From Myxococcales bacterium (GTDB lineage Bacteria > Myxococcota_A > Polyangia > Polyangiales > DASUME01), in contig JASGJH010000001.1 of the NCBI GenBank assembly GCA_047601445.1, forward strand, positions 4,064,001-4,128,000: DNA of 64,000 nucleotides, given 5' to 3'. Below, in pieces: positions 6,772 through 60,807 of the stretch. Positions within the stretch are counted from its first letter, which is position 1. Each line of letters opens with the position of its first letter. The notes beneath the pieces were generated by a model. It saw only the letters and a list, made by a program, of their open reading frames with translations. It was not told the origin of the DNA and searched no databases. Position numbers and translations under genes: made by a program.

Positions 6772-6787
6772 ACCGCGGAGCGTCCTC

Positions 6788-8041
6788 GTGCATTCATCCG
6801 TCGCACTTCGTTCGAAGCTAAGGCTGTCACTGCTCGCGTGGTGGCTGCTCACCAGCGCGGGCTGCCCCGAGAGCTCGGGCTCCCCCGAGTACGAGTGCAG
6901 CGGCGCACAGGAGCTTTCGTTGTCCTGGACCAGCGCAGGATCCAGCTACTGCAACACCGGCTCACTCCTGCCGAACGCGATCCAGGTCGACAGCGACGGC
7001 GGTCTCTCCGCGACCGGCTGCAGCTTTCCCGAAGGCAGCCGTCTGAGCGAGGCCTGCCAGCTCGTCATCCCCGCGATCGGTGGGGGCGCCCAGTGTTCGA
7101 GCAGCAGCAGCTACGGCTACGGATCCGTCAAGTTCTCCCTCTACGCAGAGGGGCTGGGCCCGCAGCTCTCCGGGAACGAACCGATCGCCGACAACCAGGC
7201 GACCGTGCACATCGCGACGGGGGATGGCTGCTCGGCGCCCTATCGGGTGAGCGTCTCGCGTCAGATCCGAAGTCCCCAAACGTCCTGTGAGTTCGTTTGC
7301 GTGAACTACGGGGACTGCGTCGACAACGACGTCGTGTGCGACGGAAACCCCGACTGCGCAGATGGTTCGGACGAGAGCGACTGCCCGGACAGCTGTGGGG
7401 ACGCCAGCCTGGGATACCAGTGCAGCGATGACACCTGCGCTACGCGCTGCGACGGTTCCTACGAGTGCGCCGACGGTAGCGACGAAGATGGCTGTGAGAG
7501 CAATCAGGTCTGCGAGTTCAGCTGCGGCAACGGTGAGTGCGTTTTCCTCTCGCAACAATGTGACGGCTACACCGATTGCGCGACTGGCGCCGACGAGCGC
7601 AACTGCAACTCATCCTGCTCCACCCACCTGATCTGTGACGGCAGATGCGTGCCTCCGAGCTGGATGTGCGACGGCGTGTACCAGTGCAGCGACCGCGCCG
7701 ACGAGCGCACCTGCAACGGCTGCAGCTTGAGCGAGATCGACTGTGGTGATGGCACCTGTCTGGACGACCGCTACCTGTGCAACGGCATCCGGGAGTGCGG
7801 CACGGGCGCCGACGAACAGGACTGCGCGTGTTCGGCCGGCCGCTTCGAGTGCTCGGGCAAGCCCTGCCAACCAGCGGCCAAGCGCTGCGATGGCATCAGC
7901 GACTGCGCGGGCGAGGACGAGGTCGACTGCCGCTGCCCCACCAACACCTTCGACTGCGTCGACGCCTGCGTGCCACGGAGCTTCCGTTGCAACGGCTTCG
8001 TGGACTGCAACAACGGAGCGGACGAGAGCAATTGCCCGTAA
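6788..8041 (+). CDS. Lipoprotein with seven LDL-receptor class A repeats
   Basis: LLTSAGC lipobox-like motif. Seven units ending C(D/N)GxxxCxxxxDExxC, e.g. CDGNPDCADGSDESDC and CNGFVDCNNGADESNC. Start may be GTG 6788 or 6734. Confidence 0.85.
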   Translation: MHSSVALRSKLRLSLLAWWLLTSAGCPESSGSPEYECSGAQELSLSWTSAGSSYCNTGSLLPNAIQVDSDGGLSATGCSFPEGSRLSEACQLVIPAIGGGAQCSSSSSYGYGSVKFSLYAEGLGPQLSGNEPIADNQATVHIATGDGCSAPYRVSVSRQIRSPQTSCEFVCVNYGDCVDNDVVCDGNPDCADGSDESDCPDSCGDASLGYQCSDDTCATRCDGSYECADGSDEDGCESNQVCEFSCGNGECVFLSQQCDGYTDCATGADERNCNSSCSTHLICDGRCVPPSWMCDGVYQCSDRADERTCNGCSLSEIDCGDGTCLDDRYLCNGIRECGTGADEQDCACSAGRFECSGKPCQPAAKRCDGISDCAGEDEVDCRCPTNTFDCVDACVPRSFRCNGFVDCNNGADESNCP

Positions 8042-32681: not shown

Positions 32682-33296
32682 TCAGCGCCACGTGGCGTAG
32701 ACCCCGAGCGCGGCCGAGATCACCATGCACAGGGCCGCGATGCGGAAAAAGCCGACCGCGAATGCGCGCGAGCGAAAGCGTCGGGCCAGGGCATCCGCAC
32801 TGACTCCGTAGACGGCGAGCCCGAGCAGCTCGGTGCACGTGACGGAGACCATCACGATGGCCGCCTGTGTCATCAGGGGCCGTTTGGGGTCGAGATACGC
32901 AGGCAGCATGCCGCCGAAGTAGACCAGCGCATTGGGATTGCCTAGCTGCAGCGCTACCCCGCTGGCGAACAAGCGTGTGCGCGGCGGCGCCTTTTCGCGC
33001 TCCAGCTGCACCGTACCAGCGCGGAACAGGCGCACACCGAGCACGATGATAAAGGCGAGACCTCCCAGCTTGAGCAGCGCGAATAGCAGCGGGAACGCCT
33101 GCGAAAGCGAGGCAGCCCCTGCCACCGCGAGACTCGTCCAGAGCAAGTTCGAGGCGCAGATGCCGAGCGCGGGCAGCATGGCGGGCCAGAAGCCGTAGCG
33201 AATGGAACAGGTCACCACCAACATCACGGCCGGGCCGGGTGTGAGTCCGCCGGCAAGGAAGAGCAACATGAGGGCGATCCACGCCGCGAGTTCCAT
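32682..33296 (-). CDS. LysE/RhtB family translocator
   Basis: LTPGPAVMLVV, LKLGGLAF, LQLGNPNALVYF. Confidence 0.88.
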   Translation of the reverse strand: MELAAWIALMLLFLAGGLTPGPAVMLVVTCSIRYGFWPAMLPALGICASNLLWTSLAVAGAASLSQAFPLLFALLKLGGLAFIIVLGVRLFRAGTVQLEREKAPPRTRLFASGVALQLGNPNALVYFGGMLPAYLDPKRPLMTQAAIVMVSVTCTELLGLAVYGVSADALARRFRSRAFAVGFFRIAALCMVISAALGVYATWR

Positions 33297-35226: not shown

Positions 35227-35403
35227 ATGAAGTACAGCAATCAAAGCGGTGCTGTGACGAGCGAAGAGGATCTCTTGCTTTCGGATGAGGAGCTCGGCAG
35301 CGTGCATGGTGGACTCTCGACTCCCCCCAGGATTCCGATCCCGCCGCACTTTCCGCCGATCATTCGCCCACCGGTGACCTTCAACCCCGGCTTCTTCGCA
35401 TGA
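35227..35403 (+). CDS. Candidate RiPP precursor: 29-aa double-glycine leader + 29-aa Pro-rich core
   Basis: RBS AAGGAG. MKYSNQSGAVTSEEDLLLSDEELGSVHGG | LSTPPRIPIPPHFPPIIRPPVTFNPGFFA. LSDEELxxVxGG is the classic GG-leader motif. Confidence 0.8.
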   Translation: MKYSNQSGAVTSEEDLLLSDEELGSVHGGLSTPPRIPIPPHFPPIIRPPVTFNPGFFA

Positions 35404-35409
35404 GTCGGT

Positions 35410-35450
35410 GCAGGGGCGAGTTTCGGCTCGCGAGCGAAATTCGTCCCTGC
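35410..35450 (+). terminator. Stem-loop between the precursor genes and the P450 (mRNA-stabilising or attenuating element)
   Basis: gcaggggcgagtttcg pairs with cgaaattcgtccctgc: 16-bp stem, 14 WC + 2 GU. No U-tract follows. Confidence 0.6.
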
Positions 35451-35507
35451 GCTGCTCCCAACGCGGTCGTCGCGAATATGCCTACGAGAAGAGAGGAGAT
35501 TGAGCCG

Positions 35508-36716
35508 ATGCCCCCCGATCCTGTCTACAACCCGTTGGACGCAGACACCCTGGAGAACCCGTTTCCGATCTATGACTATCTGCGATCCAACGCGCCGGTT
35601 TATTGGCACGAGCAGATGCAGTCATGGGTACTCACCCGATACGCGGACTGCCGGAACGTACTCCTGGACCACAAGCTCTTCGCACGCGACGAACGGCGTG
35701 TGGGTGAGTCGATCCCAGACGATCGCCTGAGCGTGCAACAGCTGGATCCCCCGGAAGTCATCCCTTTACGCCGCTTGTTCTTTCAGGCGTTCAAGGCGGT
35801 CGACCTCGAGCAGATTGCAAGGCGCGCACGCGGCCAGATCAGGGGGCTGCTCGATGCCCATGGCAAGAGGCCGATCTTCGATCTCATGGCAGACGTCGCT
35901 TCACCCGTGGCGGAGTCGCTGACTTGCGAATTCTTCGGTTCACCCACCCCACCGGCGCCGGGAAAGTTCATGCAGATTGCCCATGGCATCGCTCTCGGAA
36001 TGGATGCGGGGCTCGAACCCTGTCAGAGGGGCGCCGGGCGGGCCGTCAGCGTCGAGCTCGACCGCATGGTGCGCGACTGGTCGGAGGACCCCATTCCGGG
36101 AAGTTTCATGGCTGAGGTCAAAGACAAGATCCTCCCACGGAAATACCCGGACACGTTGATCTACCGCACCGTCGACGCCATGGTGAACGCATCGTACTCC
36201 ACGATTTACGCGTCCATTGGAAACGCAGCGCTCACCCTGTTTCAGCATCCAGAGATCCGCGCCGCCTTCACTCCGCACAACCTGGTCAGCGGATGCGACG
36301 AGATCCTGCGCTTCGACAGCCCCGCACATGCAACGAGCCGTGTCGCCACCGAGCGCACCACCATCGGCGGCACGGTGATCGAGCGTGGACAGGTGGTCAT
36401 CACGTTGTTCGCCGCTGCGAATCGAGACCCCGACGGTTTTGAACGCCCCAACGATCTCGTTCTCGACCGCCGTCACAATCATCACCTGGGCTTCGGCTGG
36501 GGTTCGCACCAGTGCCTTGGCATCGGCCTGGCGAACGTCGCCCTGCACGAGTTCGTGTCTGCCGCCCTGGCGCTGCCCGCGTTGCGCTCCCTGGGCAAGC
36601 CGAAGCGCTTTCGAACGGCCACTCTGCGCTGGCTGCAAAACCTGCCCGTAACCGCCTCGCCACAGTCGTCACCGGAAATGGAGGAGCAACGTCATGGCAC
36701 AACTGAACACGCATGA
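35508..36716 (+). CDS. Cytochrome P450, resembling peptide-crosslinking (biarylitide BytO-type) P450s
   Basis: Heme motif HLGFGWGSHQCLG, ExxR in DEILRFDSP, RBS GAGGAG before ATG 35508. RRVGESIP...LSVQQLDPP and GMDAGL segments recalled from biarylitide P450s. P450 call is firm, subfamily less so. Confidence 0.9.
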   Translation: MPPDPVYNPLDADTLENPFPIYDYLRSNAPVYWHEQMQSWVLTRYADCRNVLLDHKLFARDERRVGESIPDDRLSVQQLDPPEVIPLRRLFFQAFKAVDLEQIARRARGQIRGLLDAHGKRPIFDLMADVASPVAESLTCEFFGSPTPPAPGKFMQIAHGIALGMDAGLEPCQRGAGRAVSVELDRMVRDWSEDPIPGSFMAEVKDKILPRKYPDTLIYRTVDAMVNASYSTIYASIGNAALTLFQHPEIRAAFTPHNLVSGCDEILRFDSPAHATSRVATERTTIGGTVIERGQVVITLFAAANRDPDGFERPNDLVLDRRHNHHLGFGWGSHQCLGIGLANVALHEFVSAALALPALRSLGKPKRFRTATLRWLQNLPVTASPQSSPEMEEQRHGTTEHA

Positions 36717-37830
36717 TGAATGGTCGCGAATCAGGGAAGTCATCGTCGGCAGCGCTGCCAACTACACTTCTCATGACCGAGAGCTCTCGTTCGACCTGTT
36801 CTTCCACGAAAACCTCTTCCGCTCGGACTGGGCCTACCCGCGCCTCAAGAGCGCGTGTCCCGTGCGCGATCGGGCCTGGGAGATCAAGCAGCGGTACGTC
36901 GAAGAGCTCAATGAAGACGTGGAAGGCCTCGTCGAGGTCCTGCGCTCTCTCGGCATCACCGTGCACAGGCCGATGCCGCTGCCGCCCAACACCCCCTCAA
37001 TCAAGGGCTTCGGCTGGGAAGCGATGCCCGTTCCTGCGCTCAACGTCCGCGACAACACGCTGATCCTCGGCAACGAGATCATCGAGACCCCGCCGGCCAT
37101 CCGCTCACGCTACCTCGAAACGCGCCTGCTTGCTCCCGCCTTCAAGCACTACCACGACGCAGGCGCTCGCTGGACGACGATGCCGCGTCCCCTCCTCACC
37201 GACCGCTCGTTCGATCTCTCCTACGCGCGCGACACCGAGACCAGCTTGGGGGGACCGACCGAGCCAATCGAGGATCCGCAAGCGTCGCCGTATGACGTGG
37301 GCTTCGAGATGATGTTCGACGGGGCTCAGTGCCTACGCCTTGGCCGCGACCTGGTGATGAACATCGCGAACGCCAACCACGCGCTCGCAGTTGACTGGCT
37401 CGAGCGTCATCTGGAGGGCCGCTACCGCATCCACCGTGCCTTCCGCATGAGTGACAACCACATCGACTCGATGATCTTGGCCTTGCGCCCCGGCGTCTTC
37501 CTTGCGCGTCACGCAGGCATCCGTGAGCACCTTCCGGAGTGCTTCAAGCGCTGGGAGTTCATCGTTCCTCCGGTGCCGGACGTCTTCCCCACCTACGAGG
37601 ACGCAGACCTCGTATTGACCAGCCCATACATCGACCTCAACGTACTCTCCATCAGCCCTACGACATTGCTGGCCAACGCGGCCTGCGTCGATCTGATCAG
37701 AACCCTCGAGCACCGGGGCTTCGAGGTGATCCCCGTTCGGCACCGTCACCGGCGCCTCTTCGGAGGTGGCTTTCATTGCTTCACCTTGGACACCGTCCGC
37801 GATGGCGGACTCGAGGACTACAGCGCCTAG
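36694..37830 (+). CDS. Amidinotransferase (glycine/inosamine-phosphate amidinotransferase family)
   Basis: HDEWSRIREVIVG, NVRD, MFDGAQ, HIDS, catalytic GGGFHCFTLDTVRDG. RBS GGAGGAG. Confidence 0.92.
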   Translation: MAQLNTHDEWSRIREVIVGSAANYTSHDRELSFDLFFHENLFRSDWAYPRLKSACPVRDRAWEIKQRYVEELNEDVEGLVEVLRSLGITVHRPMPLPPNTPSIKGFGWEAMPVPALNVRDNTLILGNEIIETPPAIRSRYLETRLLAPAFKHYHDAGARWTTMPRPLLTDRSFDLSYARDTETSLGGPTEPIEDPQASPYDVGFEMMFDGAQCLRLGRDLVMNIANANHALAVDWLERHLEGRYRIHRAFRMSDNHIDSMILALRPGVFLARHAGIREHLPECFKRWEFIVPPVPDVFPTYEDADLVLTSPYIDLNVLSISPTTLLANAACVDLIRTLEHRGFEVIPVRHRHRRLFGGGFHCFTLDTVRDGGLEDYSA

Positions 37831-37851
37831 CGCGCGGCATGGGAGGCCTGT

Positions 37852-39162
37852 GTGCGCATCCTGATTGGAAATCACATCGACGACTCACTGCTCTGGCAGA
37901 AGGATCAAAGGGCATTTAGTCAGCGCATCTTGTGGTTTGCGCAGGACGGCGACATCGTGATCCTCTCGTGCGAGCCGGACCCCTCTTTTCTCGAGTACGT
38001 CACGTCGCTTGCGGGGGTCGGACGCGACACCCTCGAGTTTCTCGTCGTGCCCCCGGGCGGCCACGGAACACGGCTATTCGATCCCAATTCACTGCTCGAT
38101 CCCGACTTCGTGGCCGAGGTGAAACGGCGCATCGGCGACGTGTCTGATGTCTTTGCGCTGTGGCCCTCCGCCCAGGTCGCCGAGTTTGCCGAACTGCTCG
38201 GGATCCGAGAGAAGCTACCGGGGGCCAGCTTTTTCGCTCAACAAGGCGACGAGCTCGCGAACAACAAAGGAAACTTCCGTGCCTTTGCCGCGGCCCTCGG
38301 CGTACCCGTCGCCGAGGGGGCAGTTTGCCGAACCAAGGAGCACGCAGAGCGAGTCATCGCGCGGCTCCTGCGGACCGGGCCAGTCATGGTCAAACAGGTT
38401 CACAACGGGGCCGGCAACGGCAACGAAGTTCTCGTCTGCGACGACGAGTTGGCCACTGACCATGCCGGCAACAATCGTCGACAGCGAATCGAACCTGGAT
38501 TTTTCGAGGTTCGCGACTACCTCGAAGCGCGCTGGAATTGGGCATCCGTCGGCGGGCGATTCGCCGTGGTGGTCGAGCGCTTCGTGCCAGGGGCTCGCAC
38601 CATATACGCCGAATTCGAGGCCAGAGACGATGGACTGGCGCACACCGCAACCGGATCACTGGGATATGAGCACGGCCGGCTCGTCGAAGAGGTTACGCCG
38701 CTGCGAGGCGTCACCGATGCGGTGCTCGCGCGACTCGTACACCTTGGCGGCCGCCTCGCCGAGACCTACCGGGCGTTTGGCTACCGCGGGTTCATGAGCG
38801 CTGACGCCGTCGTTGACCAATCCGGCAACCTGTTCTTCACCGAAATGAACGCACGTGTGGGCGCTTCTCTCCACCTCTACGAAGGCATCGGAAAGCGGGT
38901 CGTCGATCAGTTTCGTGTTCCTGAGCGGTCACTGATACAGCTCGTGACGCCCAAGCATTGGAAGGTACCAGGCTTCGACGCATTTTCGCGCGTCACTCGC
39001 GAACTCGGCGTCGCCTTCGACCCACTGACTCGGAAAGGAGTGATGGCGGCGATGCCCTTCGCTGGCGAGCCCTGCGCGGGGGGCCTCCTGTTTTGTATAG
39101 CCTACGAGACGGAGCGAGAGCACCACGCCATCGTGGCCCGGCTGACAGAGCGGTTCGGCTGA
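37852..39162 (+). CDS. PGM1-related ATP-grasp peptide ligase (preATP-grasp domain)
   Basis: MRILIGN...QRILWFAQDGDIVIL...PDPSFLEYV, NNKGNFRAFAA, GYRGFMSADAV, FTEMNARVG. RBS GGGAGG. Confidence 0.85.
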   Translation: MRILIGNHIDDSLLWQKDQRAFSQRILWFAQDGDIVILSCEPDPSFLEYVTSLAGVGRDTLEFLVVPPGGHGTRLFDPNSLLDPDFVAEVKRRIGDVSDVFALWPSAQVAEFAELLGIREKLPGASFFAQQGDELANNKGNFRAFAAALGVPVAEGAVCRTKEHAERVIARLLRTGPVMVKQVHNGAGNGNEVLVCDDELATDHAGNNRRQRIEPGFFEVRDYLEARWNWASVGGRFAVVVERFVPGARTIYAEFEARDDGLAHTATGSLGYEHGRLVEEVTPLRGVTDAVLARLVHLGGRLAETYRAFGYRGFMSADAVVDQSGNLFFTEMNARVGASLHLYEGIGKRVVDQFRVPERSLIQLVTPKHWKVPGFDAFSRVTRELGVAFDPLTRKGVMAAMPFAGEPCAGGLLFCIAYETEREHHAIVARLTERFG

Positions 39163-39186: not shown

Positions 39187-40455
39187 TCATGGCGCACTGG
39201 CTTCCGCGGCTAGCGCTGGCGCCGCTTCGTTGAGACGGGACACCCGCCGCTGGAGGCTCGCCATCAAGTCCGTGCATTGCTCTTGATCGACCGCCTCGAC
39301 TACTGCAACGCCAATGCAGGTGGTCGAGCTCTCACGCATGTCGGCCATCGTCTGGCCCACCGGCACGGTCAGCGTGGCCTCCACGACGCCAGGAAGAGCG
39401 CGGATGTCCTCGCATCCAACACGATTGATCCGACCGGCCGACGCGGGGAGAGTCGTTACTCCGAAGACCTTATTCGGCTCACACGGTCGCCGCGGGATCG
39501 CGTCGCCCGTGATCGAGAGCGCTCCGGCCGCCCATAGGTCGACCCCGACCGCGCGCTCAATCATGCTCGAGATGTTGTTGCCAGCTACCCGCGCGGCCAG
39601 CTCGCCCGCAACGAAATCGAACGTACCCGGTCGAGCGAAGACCTCGAAGTGAAACACCCCGGTGACGTGCCCCAAGGCGTCGAGGGCCCGTTGGGTGAAC
39701 GTGCCCGCGGCTTGGTAGAGCTGCGGATGGCGGGACGGCGGGAAGGAAATGCTGGCGTGCTGTTTGCCGTTCTTGATCTCGAGGATAGGGGTCACGTACC
39801 TGGACGCATGGAACGTGTGCAGCTGGCCTTGCAGTACGACCCCGTCGAAGTGCCACTCATCGCCGGCGACAAACTCCTCGACCATCAGCCGGCGCAAATT
39901 CGGGTAATTCGCCACCGTGGTAGATACCGCGCTGACGAGCGCTTCGTCGTCCGATACGAACTGCACGTGACGCGTACCGTACCCGGCGACCGGCTTCAGC
40001 ACGAAGGGAGGACGCAGACCGGCGGTTCGTACCGACGCGAGCACAATGTCGGGGCTGGCACATGCATCGGGCACCACGACGAATCTGGCGGTGGGTATCC
40101 CAGCCTCGTGCCATGCGGCTTTTTGCACCGGCTTGTCGCGACAACGCAGAGCTACCTCGGGGTCGAGCCCACGGATGCCCAGGAGTCGTGCCAGGATGGC
40201 GCTCGAAACGACCCCCGTCTCGCAATTCGAGACCACGGCCCCGATCGGACGTGCGAGCGCACCCACCTGATGCAGCGCCGACCATAGGGACTCGACAGAG
40301 GTAAGCGTGTCGATGGCGCAAAAGTGACGGGCCCGTGGGCGCAGCGCCGAAACCCAGGGCTCTTGCCAGGCTTCGTACAGAAGGGTCACCTCGTGACCGG
40401 CCTCGACGAGGGCATCGAACGCTTCCCGTTTTGCTCTCACCAGCACTACGTGCAT
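39187..40455 (-). CDS. ATP-grasp enzyme (L-amino acid ligase/carboxylate-amine ligase-like); C-terminal part of ORF 39187..42522
   Basis: RCRDKPVQK, PFVLKPVAGYGT, MVEEFVAGDEWHFDG, GVFHFEVF, GELAARVAG. Own in-frame ATG at 40455 preceded by AAGGAG. Confidence 0.85.
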   Translation of the reverse strand: MHVVLVRAKREAFDALVEAGHEVTLLYEAWQEPWVSALRPRARHFCAIDTLTSVESLWSALHQVGALARPIGAVVSNCETGVVSSAILARLLGIRGLDPEVALRCRDKPVQKAAWHEAGIPTARFVVVPDACASPDIVLASVRTAGLRPPFVLKPVAGYGTRHVQFVSDDEALVSAVSTTVANYPNLRRLMVEEFVAGDEWHFDGVVLQGQLHTFHASRYVTPILEIKNGKQHASISFPPSRHPQLYQAAGTFTQRALDALGHVTGVFHFEVFARPGTFDFVAGELAARVAGNNISSMIERAVGVDLWAAGALSITGDAIPRRPCEPNKVFGVTTLPASAGRINRVGCEDIRALPGVVEATLTVPVGQTMADMRESSTTCIGVAVVEAVDQEQCTDLMASLQRRVSRLNEAAPALAAEASAP

Positions 40456-42522
40456 CGCTCTGCTCTCCTTCCGGTAGGCAGCTCTACTCTTCGATGTTTG
40501 GCGATTTGGAGCGGGCTCCGAGCGTGTCCCATGGGCAACAGAGGGAGCCCAATCACAACCTCTCCCGCATTTGAGCGAAGGCGGATTCGAAGCGTTCACG
40601 AGGTCGGATCCAATCGGCACTCGGGCGGTGAAGCCCTTCTCCAGGCGCTCGCATCTTACGTGAGTTGCTCTCGTCGTAGACGAGCCGGGTCGTCCAACGC
40701 TGACCGCGAGCTCCCCGCCCCGTTCCAGTGACAATCTTTGGCCGAAGGCCGACACCCCGGAGAACTCGTGAGGGACAGCCACATCGATCGCGTAGCCTTG
40801 GCCCGGCTCAAATAGATACCGGATGCGGAGACCCGATGAGCGGTCGTCCCAGGAACGGAGCACGCACAGCTCGGCCGAGTCCTCAAAGTGTCGGCGATTG
40901 GAGGCGATCAAGCCCTCGATTCGGTCGGAGATCAGCGCGCGATCCCCCGACTCGGCGTACTGGCGGAGCAGCGGAACGTGCCGTCGCAACAGCTGCGGGA
41001 GATACAACTCGGGTCGCTTCTCGTTGCGGATGACAGCCAGTCGAAAGGTCAGCTCCTGAAGCTCAGCGCGCTCGATTTCAGAGTTCGTCGCCCGCGCATC
41101 GAGCTCCTCGCGATACCGAGCGTACGCATCGATCAAGTCCCGAATCCGCTCGTCCTGAGCGCCTCCGAGCAGAACCTGGTTCAGCGCTTCTCGTCCTCTG
41201 GGCCACAGGCGAGCCAGCAAGCAGAGGATGCCACCGAGATCGTAGGTCCCCGTCCAGCGCGGCATGCGCCTCTCGATGAGAATCGGGGATGTGCCATCGA
41301 AAGCAACCTGATGAAGGTGCAAACCAAGCTGACCGTAGAACTTGCTCGGAGTGCACCGGGCCAGCCAGAATTGGGGAAACCCGCACAAGCGCAGGAGGCC
41401 TCGGATGACAGCCTGGGCATACTTTCGCTTCACCCGTTGCTCGAGCTCCTCGCGCTCGGGGATGGCAGCAGCGAGTCGAGGCGACAGCCCGAGGGCGGTG
41501 CAGTGCGCAAGATTTCTCAGCATGTCGCTGAGATTGGCAGGCGAGTCGGAACGGAACGGCGAGCCGCGCACCGCAATGGTGGAACCATGGTTTGGTTGAG
41601 TCGATTGCGTCTCGAAGTCGAGCAGTCGCCCACTGGTCTCGACATTCGACGACGACAGCGCTCCGTGGGGTGCCCGCCGCACGAGTAGCGCAGCTTGCTG
41701 TTCGGCAAGGCGATCGGCGAACTGCAGGAACCCCTCGCGTAGCGCCTCCTCGCAGGAGGCGGGCTCCGGAGTGTTCCGCGGCAAGGCGGCCATGATGCAT
41801 TGCTGCAGGGACCGGAGACTATCGGCGTCCTGACGAGAATAGGGGTTGAGCATGAAATGCGCCGGGCGCACCGGGAAAGGGCGTAGGAGCAGCGCGCGGC
41901 GCTTGCTGCGGCCATCCGGCAAGAGCATTGATGTCCCACAGTCCAGAATGGCGAGCACGCGGTTGGCGCCATGCGGCGCTTCGGCCTGGTTGAGCTCACC
42001 CCAGACTGCCTCGCGCATGGCATCTCCCAAGAACAGACCTCCATGCCGATGATCGTGCGGACTTCCGTGGTCGGCCAGCGACGTCGTCCCGATGCCTTTG
42101 ATCTGCAGCGATCCGAGCGCGGCTGCGCGGCCGCTCCCACGGTTGGCCCCGATGCCCTCACCACCGTATCGATCGGCATAAAAAGCCCGGGCTTCACCGA
42201 TGAACATGCCAGGCTCATCCTGGTCGTCCGGGATCCGATACGCGAAAGCTTCGAGGAATATGTGCTCGAGCTCAGGTGTGATGCCGTCGCTAGGCAACCC
42301 GAGCTCGAGGTCGCGCAACAGAGACCAGTTCACCCACAGCAGCCTCGCGTCGCGCATTCTTCGGGCGAGCACCGGCACGAACGCCTCCGGTGGTGGTGCC
42401 ACCGGCGCGTTGTCCATGAGCCGAGCGAGCCCGGCTCGGAGCCTGTCGTAGGGGGAAACGGACACGCCAATAGAGGCATGAAGCGATGTTGCGTCGCGAG
42501 CAATCCTCATCACCCCGCACAA
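40456..42522 (-). CDS. SelO/YdiU-like (MchC-like) nucleotidyltransferase-fold domain, in frame with the downstream ATP-grasp
   Basis: LLWVN, ADRYGGEGIGANRGSGRA, LQIKGIGTT, REAVWGE, HGALSSSN...LLDFET parallel the SelO motifs (GDGRA, QLKGAG, RE, HGxxNxDN, D). Start may be 42417. Confidence 0.7.
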
Positions 42523-42554: not shown

Positions 42555-43514
42555 TCACCCGGTTGCAAAGCGATCGAGCGCGCTCATCAGGGCCAATCGC
42601 TTGCTGTTGCTGCGCAGGTGCCCGGCGTCGTCCACCGCGATGAGCTCCGCCCCCGCCCATGCTCGCGCAAGGGCCCAGGCGGTGTCGATTGGACAACTCA
42701 TGTCTCGTCTTCCGTGGATCACCACCCCGGGGATTCCATCGAGCCGCGCCGCGTTCTGGATCAGAGCGCCTTCTTCCAACCAACCGCCATGCCGAAGGTA
42801 GTGGGTACAAATGCGCACGAAGGCCAGCATGTCCTCGACCGGCATCTCAGAGCTCGAGGCCGCGCCGGCACCAGTCTCGAGTGAGAGCACCGCGTCCTCC
42901 CATTTGCACCACCCCCTGGCGGCCGCCACCCTGACGGCCTCCTCAGGGTGATCCATGCGCTGGGCGTAAGCCTCGATCAGGTCCGCCCCACGCGCGGTGT
43001 TGGGTAAGGGACCTCGGAATTGTTCCCATGCTTCCGGGAAGAAACGAGCAGCCCCTGCGTACAGCCACTCGGCCTCACGACGAGTCCACGTAGTCACATT
43101 GCTGAGCACGAGCTCAGAAACCGACTCGCGATGGCGATGCGCATAGGCCAGCGCGAGCGCGACACCCCACGAGGCGCCGGAGACCAACCAACGCTCGATG
43201 CCGAGGTGACGCCGGAGGGATTCCATGTCCGCGATGAGGTGATCCGTCGTGTTGCATGACATGTCCGTGGCGAGGTCACTGGCGGAGGGGATCGACCTTC
43301 CGCAGCCCCGTTGGTCGAACAGAACCACCCTATACTGCTCCGGGTCGAACGCGCGCGCCATGTTGGGAGCGCAGCCTTGCCCGGGACCGCCGTGCAGCAC
43401 CACAGCGGGCTTTCCGTGGGGTACGCCGAAGACCTGCCACGCGATGCGGTTTTCGGAGCTGACCTCCAGGTGTCCTTCTTGGATGGGTCCTCGCAGCGGA
43501 TACAAGTCGACCAT
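42555..43514 (-). CDS. pip: Proline iminopeptidase (peptidase S33)
   Basis: VVLHGGPG, FDQRGCGRS, nucleophile GASWG, HGRRD, DAGH. Confidence 0.88.
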   Translation of the reverse strand: MVDLYPLRGPIQEGHLEVSSENRIAWQVFGVPHGKPAVVLHGGPGQGCAPNMARAFDPEQYRVVLFDQRGCGRSIPSASDLATDMSCNTTDHLIADMESLRRHLGIERWLVSGASWGVALALAYAHRHRESVSELVLSNVTTWTRREAEWLYAGAARFFPEAWEQFRGPLPNTARGADLIEAYAQRMDHPEEAVRVAAARGWCKWEDAVLSLETGAGAASSSEMPVEDMLAFVRICTHYLRHGGWLEEGALIQNAARLDGIPGVVIHGRRDMSCPIDTAWALARAWAGAELIAVDDAGHLRSNSKRLALMSALDRFATG

Positions 43515-43571: not shown

Positions 43572-44615
43572 CTACCCTGAAGACGGGCCCGTGTCTCGTG
43601 GAGGAACGGCCTGCGCGACGAGCACGTGAACGCCGGAGCGGGTGGTCAACACTCGCTCGATCACGAAGCCGGCTGCAACGAGCAAGGCGCGGTTCTCGTC
43701 GAGCGTGCGATCCCGAGCCCCGAACAACACGAGCATCGTCAGGTCTCGAATCGACGATGGAAGTCCGCCCTCGCGCTCCAGGTCGAGCGAGCGCTCGATG
43801 AGCAAGAGGCGCCCACCTCCCGTGATGGCGCGCCGCACGTTGCCAAGGATTTGCAAGGCCTCTTCGTCGCGCCAGTTGTGAATCACTGCCTTGAGCAAAT
43901 AGAGTTCTGCTCCAGCAGGAACCTCCCGCAACAGGTCGCCGGCGAGCGCTGTGCCTCGCCCGCTCACTCCTCGCTCCTGAAGAGTATGCCTGACTTGTTC
44001 GACCACGGCCGCCTGCTCGACCGCGATTCCTTGCAACTCCGGGTGTCCCTTCAGTACCTCGGCGAGCAGGGTTCCGTCACCCGCTCCCAGGTCGACGACC
44101 AGGCCTCGCTCGGGGAACTCGTACAGGGCTTCGAACTCGTTCCAGAAATGGGAGCTGTTGAAGCGCATCGTGCGCGCGAAGGAACGCGCCAGCTCGGGGG
44201 TTTCGCTCATGTAGGTCCACAGCCCCCGCCCATGCACGTGCTCGAAAGCCGAGCGACCGGTACGCAACGCGTAGCTCAAGCAGGCCCAGGCGTCGTAGTA
44301 TTCGGTTCCAGACATTCGAGCGTGACCATGAAGCAGACCCGCCTCGTGGTGCAGCAGCTTGCAGAGCGCGGTACCGTGAACCAGACCGTCGACGCGCTGT
44401 ACGAGCTCGAGTCCCTCAAGCGCATCCAAGTACCTGCGCAGTTCGTTCGTGCCGATACCGGTCAGCTCCGCGAGAGTGCGTTCGGTCTGCGGCCCCTCGG
44501 CCAGAAAGTCCGGGATGCGGAGCGTCACCGCCGAGGCCACGAGCTGCGTAACGATGTACCCACCCAACAGCTTCCCGAGCCGCTCGCCTTCCGGCCTGGC
44601 TTCGTTCTGGAGCAT
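43572..44615 (-). CDS. SAM-dependent methyltransferase (O-MT family 2 with dimerisation domain)
   Basis: VVDLGAGDG, GDLLREVP, YLLKAVIHNWRDE, DLTMLVLFGARDRT. RBS GAGGAGG before ATG 44615. Confidence 0.92.
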   Translation of the reverse strand: MLQNEARPEGERLGKLLGGYIVTQLVASAVTLRIPDFLAEGPQTERTLAELTGIGTNELRRYLDALEGLELVQRVDGLVHGTALCKLLHHEAGLLHGHARMSGTEYYDAWACLSYALRTGRSAFEHVHGRGLWTYMSETPELARSFARTMRFNSSHFWNEFEALYEFPERGLVVDLGAGDGTLLAEVLKGHPELQGIAVEQAAVVEQVRHTLQERGVSGRGTALAGDLLREVPAGAELYLLKAVIHNWRDEEALQILGNVRRAITGGGRLLLIERSLDLEREGGLPSSIRDLTMLVLFGARDRTLDENRALLVAAGFVIERVLTTRSGVHVLVAQAVPPRDTGPSSG

Positions 44616-44781
44616 TCGGAACCTCCTCAACTGCTTGCCTCAAGTCGTACTCGAGTGCGAGGCCCATGGCGACGAGGTTAACCCCGCGTGGCGCAAGATG
44701 ACGGCGGTCCAGCCCGCCCAACCGCCGATGGTCCCTATCCGCCATAGCGATGGCGTTCAAGCGCCCCGCCAACGCCCCATG

Positions 44782-55134: not shown

Positions 55135-55854
55135 ATGGGCAGCTTGCTTGTTCCAATCGATCAGGGTTTCGCAGAACACTTTGCCCACGAGTGGGTCGCC
55201 GCCTGGAACGCTCACGATCTCGACCGCATCTTCTCGCACTACGCGGACGACTTTGAGTTTTCCTCCCCATTGATCGCTCAGCGGGGCTTCTCGACGACCG
55301 GGACGCTTCGGGGCAAGCAGGCCATGCGTCCCTATTGGTCGGCGGGCTTGGCGTCGGCTCCGCAACTGCGCTTCGAGATCCGCGAGGTGTTCGCGGGCGC
55401 CGATTGCGTGTCCATTCAATATCACAGCGTCGGCCGAGGTCTGGTCAGCGAGATGTTCTTCTTCGATGAGCAGCGCCGAGTCGTGCGCGCAGCGGCGAGC
55501 TATGGACGGAAGATCGAGTCGCCCCCACAGCTGCAGCAAGCTTGCCATGCCTACCGCGTCGACTTCGACTCGCTGCCTTGGGAATCTCCGATGCCGGGAG
55601 TGCGCCACAAGGTGGTGTCGTGCGAAGCGAGCGCCCTTCGCCTCGTCGAGTATTCGCAGGAGATGCCCCCGCATGCATGCGAGCGGGGCCACGCCGGGCA
55701 GATCCTGTCTGGGCGATTGCAAGTCGAGATCTCGGGTCAACGGCTCCAGTTTGGTCCCGGCGATGGGTTGCTGATCCCGCCGGGTCCCGCCCATGCCCAT
55801 GTCGCGGCCGCGCTCACTCCCACCGTGCTGGCGCTCTTCGTCGAGAAGGCCTAG
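55135..55854 (+). CDS. SnoaL/NTF2-like domain fused to a cupin domain
   Basis: EWVAAWNAHDLDRIFSHYADD (NTF2), then PHACERGHAG...GDGLLIPPGPAHAH (cupin). Confidence 0.75.
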   Translation: MGSLLVPIDQGFAEHFAHEWVAAWNAHDLDRIFSHYADDFEFSSPLIAQRGFSTTGTLRGKQAMRPYWSAGLASAPQLRFEIREVFAGADCVSIQYHSVGRGLVSEMFFFDEQRRVVRAAASYGRKIESPPQLQQACHAYRVDFDSLPWESPMPGVRHKVVSCEASALRLVEYSQEMPPHACERGHAGQILSGRLQVEISGQRLQFGPGDGLLIPPGPAHAHVAAALTPTVLALFVEKA

Positions 55855-57587
55855 CGGCGGGCCCCACGCACGAACTCCGTGATCCTCACGGCGCGCTCTC
55901 GGGCCTCTTCGATCTCCTTCGGATCCTGGGTCTCGATCGCGGCACGCAGATGCGCGATGACAGCACCGAGTTCTGCGCGCTCCACGCCCGTGAGCTCCGC
56001 GTAGAGTGCATCGGCGCGCGCGAGGGCCGTGCGGTTCGGGAGCGCCTCGCGCGGGTGGAACTTGAGGCCCTTCATGGCCGCCCGAGCTTGCTCGATTTGC
56101 TTGGGGCTCAGCGCTCCCGGGCGCTGCTCGATCACCACCACGTGTTTCTTGTCGGAGTCGACGACCTGCATCTCCACCTCGAGAATGCCGTTCAGGTCAT
56201 AGGTGAAGCGCACTTCGACGCCGGCCTCACCCTTGGGCTTTCGCGGGAGATCCTTGACGGTGTATTCGCCGAGCTTGGTGTTGTCCTTACACAGCGAATG
56301 TTCGCCCTGGAAGACCTCCACCTGGATTTGCTTCTGGTTGTCCTCGATGGTGGCGAAACGCTCCGAGCGACTGACGGGAATGGTGGTGCCGCGCTCGATG
56401 ATCGGCGAGAAGATGCCCGCCACGTGACGCTGACCGAATTGGGTCGCGGTCGCGATGCCGAGGCTGAAGGGAGCCACGTCCGTGGCGATCAAGTCGTCCA
56501 CCGCTTGATCCCCCTGCTTGAGCGCAGCTTGCACGGCGGCACCCATGGCCACCGCCTCGTCGGCAGGCAACGTGCGATTCGGCACGCGTCCGAAGGTCTT
56601 CGCCACCATGTCCGCGACGCAGCCCATGCGCGTGGCGCCGCCCACCAGCAGCACCTCGTGCACCGCGGAGGGCAAGAGCGACGCGTCGCGCAGCGCTCGC
56701 GCGATGGGGCCACGCAGGCGCTCGATCAAGGGCTGCCAGATCTGCTCCGCGCGCGCCCGTGTGATGGTCAGCTCCACGTCCTGCGTACCTTGCTTGGTTG
56801 CGAGTCCCACGAGCGCCACGGTGGCCTCAGCAGCCAGTGAGAGGCGTCGCTTGGCGGCCTCGGCGGCCTCTCTCACGCGAGCCTTGAGGACCACATCCCT
56901 GGCCACATCGACGCCATGTCGCTCGAGAAGCTCCCGTTCAAACTCGAGCGCCAGCAGGTCGGCGAAGTCTTCGCCACCCAGGCGGGCGTCACCCGCGGAT
57001 GCTTGAACCTCGATCACACCCTCGATGATCTCGAGCACGGTGACGTCGAAGGTCCCGCCCCCCAGGTCGAGCACGATGGCGCGGATTTCCTGGTCGCGCG
57101 CGTGCAGCCCGTAGGCAAGAGCTGCAGCGGTGGGCTCGTTGATGATGCGCTCCACGTGCAAACCCGCGAGGTCACCCGCGACGCGAGTGGCCTGACGTTG
57201 CGCATCCCCGAAGTAGGCAGGAACCGTGACAATGGCTTCGCGAATCGGGCGACCGAGGGCCGCCTCTGCATCTCGCTTCAACTCCGCCAGCACCAGTGCG
57301 CTCAGCTGCTCGGGCCGAAAGCTGTGCTTGCCCAGGGTGTAGAGGCGGTCGGTCCCCATGTCGCGCTTGAACGCCAGGGCTGTGTGCTCGGGGTGCGTAG
57401 CGGCTCGCGCACGGGCGGCTGCCCCGACCAGCATGCGCCCGTCGTCATCCACGGAGACGGCGCTGGGCGTCAAGAGCTCTCCCACCGCGTTGGGCAGGAG
57501 CACAGGTTTGCCTGCTTGCAGCACGGCACACAGGGAGAACGTGGTCCCGAGGTCGATGCCAACGATCAAGTCGTTCGTGTCACTCAC
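55851..57587 (-). CDS. hscC: Hsp70-family chaperone HscC
   Basis: GIDLGTT, TVPAYF, INEPTAAA, DLGGGTFD, FTYDLNGILEV. C-terminal LKFHPRE is typical of HscC. Confidence 0.85.
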   Translation of the reverse strand: MSDTNDLIVGIDLGTTFSLCAVLQAGKPVLLPNAVGELLTPSAVSVDDDGRMLVGAAARARAATHPEHTALAFKRDMGTDRLYTLGKHSFRPEQLSALVLAELKRDAEAALGRPIREAIVTVPAYFGDAQRQATRVAGDLAGLHVERIINEPTAAALAYGLHARDQEIRAIVLDLGGGTFDVTVLEIIEGVIEVQASAGDARLGGEDFADLLALEFERELLERHGVDVARDVVLKARVREAAEAAKRRLSLAAEATVALVGLATKQGTQDVELTITRARAEQIWQPLIERLRGPIARALRDASLLPSAVHEVLLVGGATRMGCVADMVAKTFGRVPNRTLPADEAVAMGAAVQAALKQGDQAVDDLIATDVAPFSLGIATATQFGQRHVAGIFSPIIERGTTIPVSRSERFATIEDNQKQIQVEVFQGEHSLCKDNTKLGEYTVKDLPRKPKGEAGVEVRFTYDLNGILEVEMQVVDSDKKHVVVIEQRPGALSPKQIEQARAAMKGLKFHPREALPNRTALARADALYAELTGVERAELGAVIAHLRAAIETQDPKEIEEARERAVRITEFVRGARR

Positions 57588-59008
57588 CGAGAACTACCTC
57601 CCACAGAGATCGACATTGGACAGCGTCCGTTCGTTTCCTTGAGCGCCAGCGCAAAGCCCAACCGCTGGTTCAAACTGGGCTGTGAGTACTTGCTTGCAAG
57701 CTCGTACTCTCGCGCGAGAGCCGAGAACGCAGCGCGCATCTCATCGCACTCCTCCGCGCGCGACCAACGCAAGGCTTCGTCGCACAGCGCCCCCTGCTCC
57801 TCGCAGAACGCCTTCTGAGGGGTATCTTTCTCGAGGACGGCGTGCTCGTCGAACTTGGGCTTGGCGGTGTCATTGACGCAGTGGTTGCACGTGAGGCGCA
57901 AGAAGTTGATCAAGACCAGCATGCCCCACGTCGGGCCTCCCCAGCTGCCGCGGTACCAGGGCTCGCGGACCGAGTCGTGGGTGCCGCGCAGGCCCTTCTC
58001 GTAGTAGGAGAAGAGCGTGGGCGCCTGGCGTTTGAGTAGGCGTGTGACTTCTTTTCTCGTGGCCTTGTCGGACTGATCGACGAGGTCCAGCAGCTGGCTC
58101 TCTGCGCGCTCCATCTCGCCACTGTCGATGGCCTTCGCGAGCACGCGTGCGAACGCGTCGGGGAGCTCGGGACGTACCGCGACGAGCTCCCGCAGCAAGG
58201 TCAGGCGTGCACCGTCGATGCCAGCTTCGCCGATATCCGTGCGGGCGGAAACCGCTCCGAACACCTGCAGCGCCAGCGCGACCTCGGAGGAACCGAGCAG
58301 CCCAGTGACGACTCGCGTCACCCACCACATCGGCGCACGCGGGCTGAGCGGGTCACCCTTTTCGCGCGCGAGCTCCGACAAGGCAAGTTGTGCTGCCGCC
58401 TTGGCATTCCCGCGCTCGAGCAGAATGCTGGCCATGCGAGCCCACTCGGGTTTGCCCTCGGAGATCTCGCGAAGGGAGGTCAGCTCGGCATCGGTCAGCT
58501 GGTCCGGCCATTGATCTCCGATGCGCAGCAGAAACTCGCGATGCCCACGACGCACAGCCTGGCGCGCCACCAGGAGCTGCTCATTCTCGGCGTCGCGTTC
58601 CTCGAGCGAGGCGAGCAAAAGGGAGTAGGCCTCCTCGGATTGCTCGCGCGCCACGGCCTCCCGAGCGATGCTCTCCTGAACCGCCGGGTCGGACTCGCTC
58701 CAGTAGCGCTCGCTCAACGAGGGCGGTGGATTGGCCAGGGGCTCCTCGAGTGTGACAGGGGCTTCACTCGCTTCCGGTGGAGTCGGCATCTCCATGGCCA
58801 ATGCGAGCGACGACCCGACCACCTCCGGGGCCGGCCCAGACCGTAGGCGCGGCTGCACCGTCTCATAGGCGGCACGCAAGCGCTTGAAGCTCTCTGGGTC
58901 GCGCTCGGGCGGATGCTGCTTGAGTAGACGCAGATAGGCGCGACGCGCCGTCGCGGCGTCGGTCGTGCGCTCGATACCAAGGAGCGAAAGAGCTTCGTCG
59001 AAGGTCAC
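57584..59008 (-). CDS. J-domain protein (DjlB/DjlC-like) with TM segment
   Basis: LLGIERTTD...RRAYLRLLKQHPPERDPESFKRLRAAYE. GTGA overlap with hscC. Confidence 0.8.
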   Translation of the reverse strand: MTFDEALSLLGIERTTDAATARRAYLRLLKQHPPERDPESFKRLRAAYETVQPRLRSGPAPEVVGSSLALAMEMPTPPEASEAPVTLEEPLANPPPSLSERYWSESDPAVQESIAREAVAREQSEEAYSLLLASLEERDAENEQLLVARQAVRRGHREFLLRIGDQWPDQLTDAELTSLREISEGKPEWARMASILLERGNAKAAAQLALSELAREKGDPLSPRAPMWWVTRVVTGLLGSSEVALALQVFGAVSARTDIGEAGIDGARLTLLRELVAVRPELPDAFARVLAKAIDSGEMERAESQLLDLVDQSDKATRKEVTRLLKRQAPTLFSYYEKGLRGTHDSVREPWYRGSWGGPTWGMLVLINFLRLTCNHCVNDTAKPKFDEHAVLEKDTPQKAFCEEQGALCDEALRWSRAEECDEMRAAFSALAREYELASKYSQPSLNQRLGFALALKETNGRCPMSISVGGSSR

Positions 59009-59154: not shown

Positions 59155-60807
59155 ATGCGTGAACGGCACATGGCGTTCGTGACAGGACTGTTCTGGGGAG
59201 CGCTTGCTGCCTGCTCACCGCAGGGGTCGCCGACGAGTGGGTCTGGCAGCGAGCTCCCGAGGGACCCGGATTCCTTGGCCCCGGTCCCCGACGTCCCCAC
59301 CGTCGCTCCCCCAGCGACACCTTCCTCGGATGCGATGTGTACGGACAACGCGATCGGTGGCATCGCCTATCGGATCTGCAACGCTCCGCGCTCCTGGAGC
59401 CACGCGCGGGAGCGATGCGAAGCACAGGGCATGGTGTTGGCCCAACCTTCCAGCCCTGAATCGATGACGGCACTGGGCGCCGCTTTGAAACGGGCGTTCT
59501 GGCTGGGTGGTTCCGATCGCGCAAGCGAAGGCGAGTGGCGCTGGACCGACGGTACCGTCATCAGCCGCGCCCGCCGCTTCGGCAAGCCCTTCGTCAACCT
59601 TCCGGAATCGGCCTACTACTTCCAGAGCTTCGGGCAGCTAGAGGTGGACTTCGGGCGCAACTGCTTGCGCCTGGCGGAAGGCCGCGTGGACGCGCATGCC
59701 TGCCAGGAAGCCTTGCCCTTCGTGTGCCAGGAGCGTCCGACCGAATACGCCCCGCAGGAGAACGCGCGTGCGACTTGCACGAGCGACGACCTGGGCGGTC
59801 ATCATTATCTGATCTGTGGCGACGCGCGCACGTGGCAAGAGGCGGAGGCACACTGCAATCGCAACGACATGCACCTGGCGACGCTTCAAAGCGTGGATGA
59901 AGCCAAGTTCATCGCCGAGCGCATCCGCGCCGACAGCTTCATCGGCCTCGTCAACTCGACGCATCCGGACTTCAAGCCACAGTTCCCAGTGTTTCCGGAC
60001 AGCCTCGAGCGCGGCGTGTGGAGAAACCTCGACGACAATCGCATCGTCTGGTGTGGCAATGCGCAGGGCATGAGCACCCCGCTCAGCTACACGCGCTGGG
60101 CACAGAACGAGCCGAGCCGCGATGATCTGGCCTGCAGCGCCATGGCATCGGGCACGGGCCAGTGGCGCGCGGTCGCCTGCGGTCGTCCCCTTGCCTATGT
60201 GTGCGAGCAGATCGACGACGGCAAGCCCGACGCTTTTGCCACGCGGCCCGAGCTGATGATCGATTCCTCTCCCGAGCTGCGGCCGGGCACCCTCGTCACT
60301 TCACCCATGCTCTCGCTCGATCGCGCGTTCCATGTCCGCGCGTGTGTGGACCTCTACGAAGCAGCGAGCGTCCCGCAGACCCGTATCAAGGACGTCGAAG
60401 AGCGCTGGTACACGCAACGAGTCAACGGATACCTCGTTGCAGCAAGCGCAGGAACCTTCAGGCTGCGACGCGACCTCCGCACACGGGCGATACGTGCCAT
60501 TTGGGTGGCGTCCGAGAACAATTTCCGCATCCCCGAGCTCGCCAAGCCGAAGCTCTCCGAACGCCAAGCATTCATCAAACTGGGCGAGATCACCGGCGTC
60601 GCGCCGGAGCACATCTCCCTCCAGGCCGGCAGCGGGCTCAGGATTAATCGCAAGCCGCGCATCGTCGAGGAGGAGTACGAGCTCGTCTACGGCTTCCAAA
60701 TCATCGCCGACGCGCCCAAGCTGTCTCCTCTCACCACGCGCCACTACATTGCAGTGAACGCCAATACCGGCGAAATGTCGGGCTACGCCAACGACGTCTA
60801 CTACTGA
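59155..60807 (+). CDS. Lipoprotein with two C-type lectin-like domains and a PepSY-like C-terminus
   Basis: ALAAC, SWSHARERC...FWLGGSD...EGEWRW, TWQEAEAHC...WAQNEP...WRAVAC...YVCE, ends IAVNANTGE. Confidence 0.8.
   Translation: MRERHMAFVTGLFWGALAACSPQGSPTSGSGSELPRDPDSLAPVPDVPTVAPPATPSSDAMCTDNAIGGIAYRICNAPRSWSHARERCEAQGMVLAQPSSPESMTALGAALKRAFWLGGSDRASEGEWRWTDGTVISRARRFGKPFVNLPESAYYFQSFGQLEVDFGRNCLRLAEGRVDAHACQEALPFVCQERPTEYAPQENARATCTSDDLGGHHYLICGDARTWQEAEAHCNRNDMHLATLQSVDEAKFIAERIRADSFIGLVNSTHPDFKPQFPVFPDSLERGVWRNLDDNRIVWCGNAQGMSTPLSYTRWAQNEPSRDDLACSAMASGTGQWRAVACGRPLAYVCEQIDDGKPDAFATRPELMIDSSPELRPGTLVTSPMLSLDRAFHVRACVDLYEAASVPQTRIKDVEERWYTQRVNGYLVAASAGTFRLRRDLRTRAIRAIWVASENNFRIPELAKPKLSERQAFIKLGEITGVAPEHISLQAGSGLRINRKPRIVEEEYELVYGFQIIADAPKLSPLTTRHYIAVNANTGEMSGYANDVYY

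Follow-up and report, generated by a model that had tools for sequence, protein, structure and literature searches.

Proteins of the SelO superfamily combine a kinase-like fold with a flipped mode of ATP binding and the transfer of AMP. The MchC-type enzymes with this fold have so far been tied to the enterobacterial siderophore microcins and to an HlyC-type partner; the ATP dependence of MceIJ was reportedly described by Nolan and Walsh in 2008. In the pertinent sections of Dudkiewicz et al. (2012, PMC3281104), MchC is regarded as a distant SelO subfamily working with the HlyC-like proteins MchD/MceI. In the pheganomycin-type clusters, PGM1 couples a non-proteinogenic guanidino acid to a ribosomal peptide at its N-terminus, according to the passages on this enzyme in PMC8939145 and PMC13417212; those of PMC8939145 mention neither 'SelO' nor 'MchC' for clusters of this type. 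Here, we analyzed a stretch of 64,000 nucleotides from the genome of a Myxococcales bacterium (assembly GCA_047601445.1, contig JASGJH010000001.1, positions 4,064,001–4,128,000; hereafter, the window), in which one long open reading frame (ORF) covers both an MchC-like protein with the SelO fold and an ATP-grasp enzyme. Our analysis indicates that this ORF most likely consists of two operon genes joined by a one-base assembly error, rather than of an evolved fusion, and that the pair would tailor a peptide.

The long ORF occupied positions 39187..42522 of the minus strand as one open frame of 1111 codons with a TTG start at 42522, and its translation contained ADRYGGEGIGANRGSGRAA, LQIKGIGTT and PHGALSSSNVETSGRLLDFE. 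Residues 1–689 had no Pfam or NCBIfam match, even at E 10; the cut-off of the SelO model PF02696 was thus not reached by this part. A single-sequence phmmer search against solved chains did not produce a SelO/YdiU match either. When 5.8 billion proteins were searched with a word index, 23 non-self relatives were obtained, the closest being 43–50% identical; a precomputed SelO Pfam match was present in three of the 23. The gathering score of Pfam SelO is attained by two relatives, P0027 with 28.9 bits and P0011 with 22.8 bits, the latter lying at the cut-off. A profile built from the N-terminal part and its 23 relatives matched solved YdiU/SelO chains with E values from 5.7e-11 to 2.6e-6. The AlphaFold model built from the alignment with these relatives had a pLDDT of 87.9 and a pTM of 0.90. 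In a Foldseek search against the PDB, the top nine matches of the model were all SelO/YdiU proteins (E 1.2e-13 to 4.5e-12, probability 1.00, target TM 0.60–0.68), while the tenth match had an E value of only 3e-4. The SelO/YdiU fold spans residues ~24–640 of the long ORF. The family of MchC-like, SelO-fold proteins to which this part belongs comprised 2364 representatives at E ≤0.001 and 1235 at E ≤1e-30.

Kinship with MchC was evident from plasmid-borne genes. A tblastn search of 72,556 plasmids with the window protein matched 22 records, with E values of 1e-15 to 2e-20 for the MchC-annotated ones; among the 20 listed of these 22 matches, seven were annotated as 'MchC protein', two as 'SelO family protein', and one as 'putative bacteriocin maturation protein'. 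The matched plasmid loci were microcin-type clusters with an HlyC-type acyltransferase, HlyD, and a peptidase-ATP-binding cassette (ABC) exporter. BLASTP against an annotated MchC of a Salmonella plasmid gave an E value of 5e-27 and 32% identity over 280 columns. An initial annotation of the locus had pointed out the 1111-aa ORF with its SelO-like motifs and had suggested an MchC kinship for them. The ORF and the motifs are present as described, on the minus strand; the SelO-like character of the N-terminal part is borne out by the profile and by the nine best Foldseek matches, and the kinship by the tblastn matches to 'MchC protein' genes and the BLASTP match.

The protein falls in the same branch of the SelO superfamily as MchC/MceJ of microcins H47, M, and E492, with which it has the motifs ADRYGG, QIKGIG, RPAHF, S-x-S-N, and LLDF in common. 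Compared with the 504-aa MchC, it is ~180 residues longer, with a predicted extra helical and beta-rich C-terminal part. The SelO/YdiU AMPylases of known structure (6eac, 6iii, 6k20, 6lna) have the same fold, and their Lys, Glu, two Arg, Asn, and Asp residues are kept here; however, the identity to them is only 17–20%, the setting here is a peptide cluster, and the loop reads HGALSSSN, compared with HGVMNTDN in E. coli YdiU. In an alignment of 16 sequences, residues K142, E171, R214, R219, N293, and D302 were invariant; they are part of the motifs KG-x-G, RE, R...RxxHF, N, and D[FY], as seen in the alignment to YdiU. They were matched to the numbering of P. syringae SelO by motif, not by numbered superposition; in the relevant part of PMC8097203, the residues of that protein holding the flipped ATP and the metal are given as Lys113, Glu136, Arg176, Arg183, Asn253, and Asp262. 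Since the nucleotide and metal ligands are all kept, the N-terminal protein looks, as far as its sequence allows us to judge, like an active nucleotide-transferring enzyme, nearer to MchC than to canonical SelO.

Residues 690–1111 made up a complete ATP-grasp enzyme of the L-amino-acid-ligase type, encoded by a gene of 422 codons at 39187..40455 (minus strand). It matched the Pfam families LAL_C2 (PF18603, 40.7 bits versus a cut-off of 29.4) and ATP-grasp (PF02222, 28.4 bits versus a cut-off of 27) as well as ATP-grasp_4; its best solved relative was 4wd3 (E 3e-20). With the solved L-amino acid ligases 4wd3 and 3vot, it thus agrees in the LAL_C2 match above the cut-off and in the kind of its best solved relative; the identity is low. 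The search found 50 relatives of 290–490 aa, the closest of which were metagenome proteins and 'hypothetical' proteins of Kitasatospora or Streptomyces; a plasmid search with the ATP-grasp gave only matches of ≤34% identity. The position of M690 is the start in 11/11 close relatives aligned, and a ribosome-binding site, AAGGAG (40465..40470, minus strand), lies in front of the corresponding ATG (40455–40453) with a 9-nt spacer.

The main part of the MchC-like gene, as delimited by homology to relatives P0003–P0008, the SelO fold, and MchC similarity, extends over 40597..42510 (minus strand). Its start is uncertain: ATG 42510, GTG 42513, or TTG 42522. The public gene call of the long ORF (P0002, 1076 aa) takes a later start, ATG 42417; the relatives align from ~residue 24 of the long ORF, i.e., upstream of M36. 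At the other end, the frame-0 homology to the six closest relatives, P0003–P0008, ends at window position 40603 at the furthest, and these proteins continue for ~50 conserved residues past this point. The stretch that follows in frame 0, the 'linker' of the long ORF (codons 641–689, 40456–40602, or, more narrowly, codons ~643–689, 40456..40596; minus strand), has no similarity to the relatives and an out-of-frame-like codon score: −0.45 bits/codon by codon log-odds versus +0.32 and +0.30 in the flanks, with GC at codon position 3 dropping below position 2. A score as low was reached by 0/962 in-frame 49-codon windows taken from 11 held-out window genes, and the shifted frames of the control genes averaged −0.58 and −0.45 bits/codon. 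The initial annotation had found the ~50 residues before the ATG linker-like or non-coding in appearance and had seen in this in-frame ATG with its AAGGAG the opening of a complete 422-aa ATP-grasp; the non-coding appearance is supported by the codon log-odds and the pattern of GC at position 3, and the latter by the sequence and the Pfam matches. When 17 window genes were read in their two shifted frames, 32% (2348/7426) and 60% (4472/7426) of the 49-codon windows were free of stops; with 32–60% of the shifted windows open, the unbroken ORF by itself carries no weight.

The missing end of the MchC-like gene probably lies in the +1 frame. Open after its TGA, this frame can be aligned to the relatives from 40595 on with no gap; 49 codons later, it reaches a TAG (40448–40446), which falls 10 nt inside the ATP-grasp gene. 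The length of this tail agrees with the ~50 residues that the relatives have past the end of homology, and we consider that it (40446..40595, minus strand) is probably the real C-terminal end of the MchC-like gene. When added to the core, with X at the break, it contributed +5.0 bits against a hidden Markov model (HMM) of P0003–P0008, a gain reached by 1/300 shuffled tails; the frame-0 tail contributed −0.2 bits (206/300 shuffles) and the +2 tail −0.3 bits. The end of the frame-0 homology and the opening of the +1 frame place the likely one-base indel that joins both genes at 40590..40605 (minus strand). A programmed +1 frameshift was considered and set aside: no slippery or shift-prone motif was seen at the site, and assembly errors are the simpler explanation.

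Relatives of the N-terminal part were stand-alone proteins in 23/23 non-self cases; they were 611–759 aa long in a search that admitted 611–1945 aa. Among the 150 best representatives of the family, six besides the window's own protein were longer than 900 aa, and an ATP-grasp was detected by Pfam in none of these six; three of them carried DUF7790 with a Zeta-toxin/AAA domain, and the other three had no Pfam match. A search for proteins of fused length with the ATP-grasp part returned the window's own protein as the sole result. Relatives of both parts were found in common sources: for P0003 (665 aa) and P0166 (416 aa), the longest contig has the same length, 17036 nt, as it does for P0007 (621 aa) and P0172 (412 aa), 20566 nt. 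Because the source is common and the longest-contig size equal, the members of each pair are probably separate genes of a single contig. The scan of metagenome loci for the closest relatives (P0003–P0008) yielded six loci, the sole close one being a fragment of 1341 nt.

The family also contains long proteins of other kinds. In P0063, P0072, and P0087 (~1100 aa), an MchC-like N-terminal part precedes DUF7790 and a P-loop domain of the Zeta-toxin/AAA type, which is a recurrent long architecture. The family profile matches two stretches of P0026 (1384 aa), suggesting a tandem duplication, and long extensions without a Pfam match are present in P0091 (1407 aa) and P0099 (974 aa).

Indel errors were also found in essential genes of the same assembly, outside the window. 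The rpoB gene (C1:2769852-2773911, minus strand) was split over two frames, which are open for 1056 and 443 aa, and recognizable protein text crosses from one frame into the other. A valS-like gene (C1:256782-259179, minus strand) was split in the same way into 656 and 395 aa, just past a KMSK-type motif. The other large genes—rpoC, two dnaE-type genes, gyrA and its paralogue, ileS, a leuS-like gene, and secA—were intact; thus, 2/10 large housekeeping genes with a total length of ~33 kb were frameshifted. The two copies of a 13.4-kb repeat (C1:9455897-9469255 and C1:123599-136964) were 99.73% identical, with 17 mismatches between them and gaps opened at 17 places; most gaps were single bases outside long homopolymers. 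Within the window, ORF pairs and triplets resembling further frameshifts did not represent splits of one family by Pfam. At ~1 indel per 15 kb in the assembly, an error within the 2-kb MchC-like gene is unremarkable. Given the frameshifts of rpoB and the valS-like gene in this assembly, the long ORF is probably the product of an assembly error as well, and caution is equally needed with other odd ORFs of the genome.

The native arrangement would then be as follows. Gene 1 (~42510 to 40446) would encode an MchC-like member of the SelO superfamily of ~690 aa and would end in the +1 frame at the TAG lying 10 nt within gene 2; gene 2 (40455 to 39187) would encode a stand-alone ATP-grasp of 422 aa and have a ribosome-binding site of its own. 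Overlaps of this kind, between a stop codon and the start of the next gene, are typical where translation is coupled. An indel of one base near 40596 would bring gene 1 in frame with gene 2, the 49 shifted codons being free of stops by chance. In the initial annotation, the loss of a stop codon had been one of the ways in which the two parts could have been joined; of its options, this one comes nearest to our reading, but the cause would be a one-base frameshift, probably an assembly error, and not a lost stop.

The same frameshift could be a real mutation, in which case the MchC-like protein would have lost its tail of ~50 residues and become a read-through fusion, the ATP-grasp would also be made alone, and the cluster would possibly be decaying or rearranged. 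The end of homology, the codon scores, and the +1 tail fit this explanation equally, and the locus was absent from the nine same-genus genomes searched, which makes it an accessory locus under weaker selection. However, the frameshifts of rpoB and of the valS-like gene cannot be real in a living cell, so that indel errors are common in the assembly (~2 in ~33 kb), and the other genes of the cluster all read as intact. We therefore consider a real mutation unlikely and judge an assembly error to be several times likelier.

The two genes that the assembly error would have joined belong to a minus-strand operon in the order O-methyltransferase, prolyl aminopeptidase, MchC-like gene, ATP-grasp. 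The first gene, encoding the O-methyltransferase (43572..44630, minus strand), matched Pfam Methyltransf_2 (E 1.1e-33). The prolyl aminopeptidase gene, directly upstream of the MchC-like gene (42555..43514, minus strand), was assigned by NCBIfam TIGR01249 (294.4 bits versus a cut-off of 259.75). A promoter/terminator scan gave nothing above shuffled sequence. A plus-strand operon converges on this one and ends 24 nt from it. It starts with a candidate precursor of a peptide that is ribosomally made and modified post-translationally (RiPP), a protein of 58 aa (35227..35403, plus strand) taken from the ORF list by motif and position only. The candidate precursor has a double-glycine-type leader ending LSDEELGSVHGG and a proline-rich core of 29 residues, LSTPPRIPIPPHFPPIIRPPVTFNPGFFA, ending NPGFFA. 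AAGGAG is located 8 nt upstream of the gene, and its stop overlaps the ATG of the following cytochrome P450 gene; no significant match to a family model was obtained. In composition, the core resembles proline-rich antimicrobial peptides. The cytochrome P450 (35400..36716, plus strand) was identified by Pfam p450 and the NCBIfam P450 models. The amidinotransferase gene (36694..37830, plus strand) had no Pfam match and was recognized from the solved structures 1bwd (E 9.1e-46) and 2jdx (E 1.1e-43). The last gene (37852..39162, plus strand) encodes a full-length PGM1-type ATP-grasp peptide ligase, matching solved 3wvq with an E value of 2e-78 over residues 1–421 and Pfam PreAtp-grasp with an E value of 2.2e-24. 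A LysE-type exporter was encoded at 32682-33296 of the window.

Like the pheganomycin-type clusters, the locus has a full-length PGM1 homologue and an amidinotransferase, here beside a small candidate precursor gene; in contrast to them, neither a type III polyketide synthase nor phenylglycine-building genes were found among the scanned window ORFs. The genes at 35400-39162 (plus strand) thus follow a pheganomycin-like logic in a 9.5-Mb genome that does not look actinobacterial. The resemblance to the MchC/MceJ systems may extend to the candidate ribosomal precursor with a double-glycine leader nearby. The core of this precursor is proline-rich and ends in NPGFFA, whereas the microcin acceptor is rich in Ser and Gly; the neighbor of the MchC-like gene is an ATP-grasp gene, and the host is not an enterobacterium but has a high-GC genome of 9.5 Mb.

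The pair would tailor the ribosomal peptide made by the adjacent cluster. By analogy with its microcin relatives, the MchC-like enzyme would use ATP to adenylate a group of the peptide, most plausibly the C-terminal carboxylate, to which a nucleophile could then be attached; the ATP-grasp would make, supply, or add an amino-acid unit. What is new here is the setting: an MchC-type enzyme is found without its usual partner, and it is an ATP-grasp that accompanies it, within a peptide cluster of the PGM1 type. A literature search for SelO/MchC in RiPP clusters beyond the microcins, with supplements and subscription papers outside its range, found nothing. If the enzyme activates a peptide carboxylate, the locus would offer a compact system for learning what MchC-like enzymes do.

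The neighborhood might instead be incidental, the protein being an ordinary AMPylase/UMPylase of the SelO/YdiU type that acts on Ser, Thr, or Tyr in stress physiology. Its SelO fold and conserved nucleotide ligands agree with such a role, and relatives of the Bdellovibrionota (L013, L014, L017, L020, L031) had no peptide-cluster neighbors. On the other hand, single-sequence searches reach MchC and not SelO/YdiU, the protein scores below the Pfam SelO threshold, and its gene lies within an operon of tailoring enzymes, 24 nt from the convergent PGM1-type operon. More distant MchC-like genes of Proteobacteria, moreover, were located beside an HlyC-type acyltransferase (L024, L029) or a C39 peptidase (L033), or were fused to an HlyC-type acyltransferase (L025). 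This explanation appears quite unlikely to us. The relatives at these loci (L013, L014, L017, L020, L031) and others from Bdellovibrionota/Oligoflexia (P0009, P0010, P0016) are proteins of ~690–730 aa with N-termini that look, by eye, hydrophobic and signal-peptide-like; predatory bacteria may thus secrete them as SelO-like enzymes. The fused gene of Albitalea terrae (L025:7986-11279, plus strand) encodes a protein of 1098 aa in which an MchC-like part, an HlyC-type acyltransferase domain, and an erythromycin-esterase-like domain are combined; another MchC-like gene and a gene for a C39-peptidase ABC transporter are located nearby. In this protein, MchC is naturally fused to the partner that usually accompanies it.

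The least probable explanation is a genuine, selected bifunctional protein with a SelO/MchC-like part, a linker, and an ATP-grasp, in which an internal start would give a second isoform. It agrees with the open frame of 1111 codons and the public call of P0002 as a single protein, with the apparent co-occurrence of relatives of both parts, and with the precedent of the MchC-like fusion in L025; we regard it as very improbable, however, because there was no second case among the 23 relatives, the 150 best representatives, or the results of the fused-length search, because the linker scores as out of frame and the conserved tail of the family is missing from frame 0, because the ATP-grasp keeps a ribosome-binding site and its exact native N-terminus, and because a shifted frame should stay open over 49 codons in 32–60% of cases. 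The initial annotation had listed a true fusion among its options and had proposed checking whether the homologues are fused or split; those found are split, and the fusion option is not supported. We advise against treating the SelO-ATP-grasp fusion as a new architecture, as it is most likely an artefact of an indel-prone assembly.

Several points weigh against the reading of the locus as two genes, joined by an assembly error, that serve peptide tailoring. No sequencing run is listed for the assembly, so the indel was deduced and not seen directly. The similarity of the +1 tail is weak: an HMM of the tail only ranked the fragment 6th among 1094 window fragments, with an E value of 4.6. The codon score of this tail, −0.21 bits/codon, was below all 962 in-frame control windows; since both frames score below the controls, codon usage rejects frame 0 without positively choosing the +1 frame. 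The co-location of the pairs of relatives was deduced from the equal size of the longest contig only, the gene order being unseen, and an ATP-grasp was present in 0/26 genome loci and 0/6 metagenome loci of more distant relatives. With respect to function, the role of gene 1 is assigned by analogy with MchC/MceJ, whose clusters contain an HlyC-type partner (MchD/MceI), a C39 ABC exporter, HlyD, and an enterobactin glycosyltransferase/esterase. None of these was found in the window: on the ~60 window ORFs scanned, there was neither an HlyC-type acyltransferase (PF02794) nor a C39 exporter or siderophore glycosyltransferase, and HlyD and enterobactin esterase were not found among them either. 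A genome-wide search for HlyC was blank, but its control was blank as well.

A broader proposal can be made only tentatively, and we think it doubtful, though possible: the two enzymes may form a conserved tailoring module that RiPP chemistry has not had before, in which the ATP-grasp replaces the HlyC-type acyltransferase. Together with the PGM1-type ligase, such a module might yield a proline-rich peptide capped at both ends, the N-terminus by a guanidino-acyl group and the C-terminus by an addition that depends on adenylation. If true, this doubly capped peptide would be a bacterial counterpart of proline-rich antimicrobial peptides.

Two groups of genes outside the cluster were observed in the window. 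The ORFs at 55542-56840 and 56916-57818 (both on the plus strand) matched Pfam NAD-GH and are antisense to an Hsp70 gene (55851-57587, minus strand); NAD-GH is, we presume, an artefact family of the strand opposite Hsp70 genes, and these two ORFs are unlikely to be real genes. Proteins with eukaryote-like domains, namely four low-density lipoprotein (LDL)-receptor class A repeats and C-type lectin domains, were encoded at 6734-8041 and 59155-60807 (both on the plus strand).

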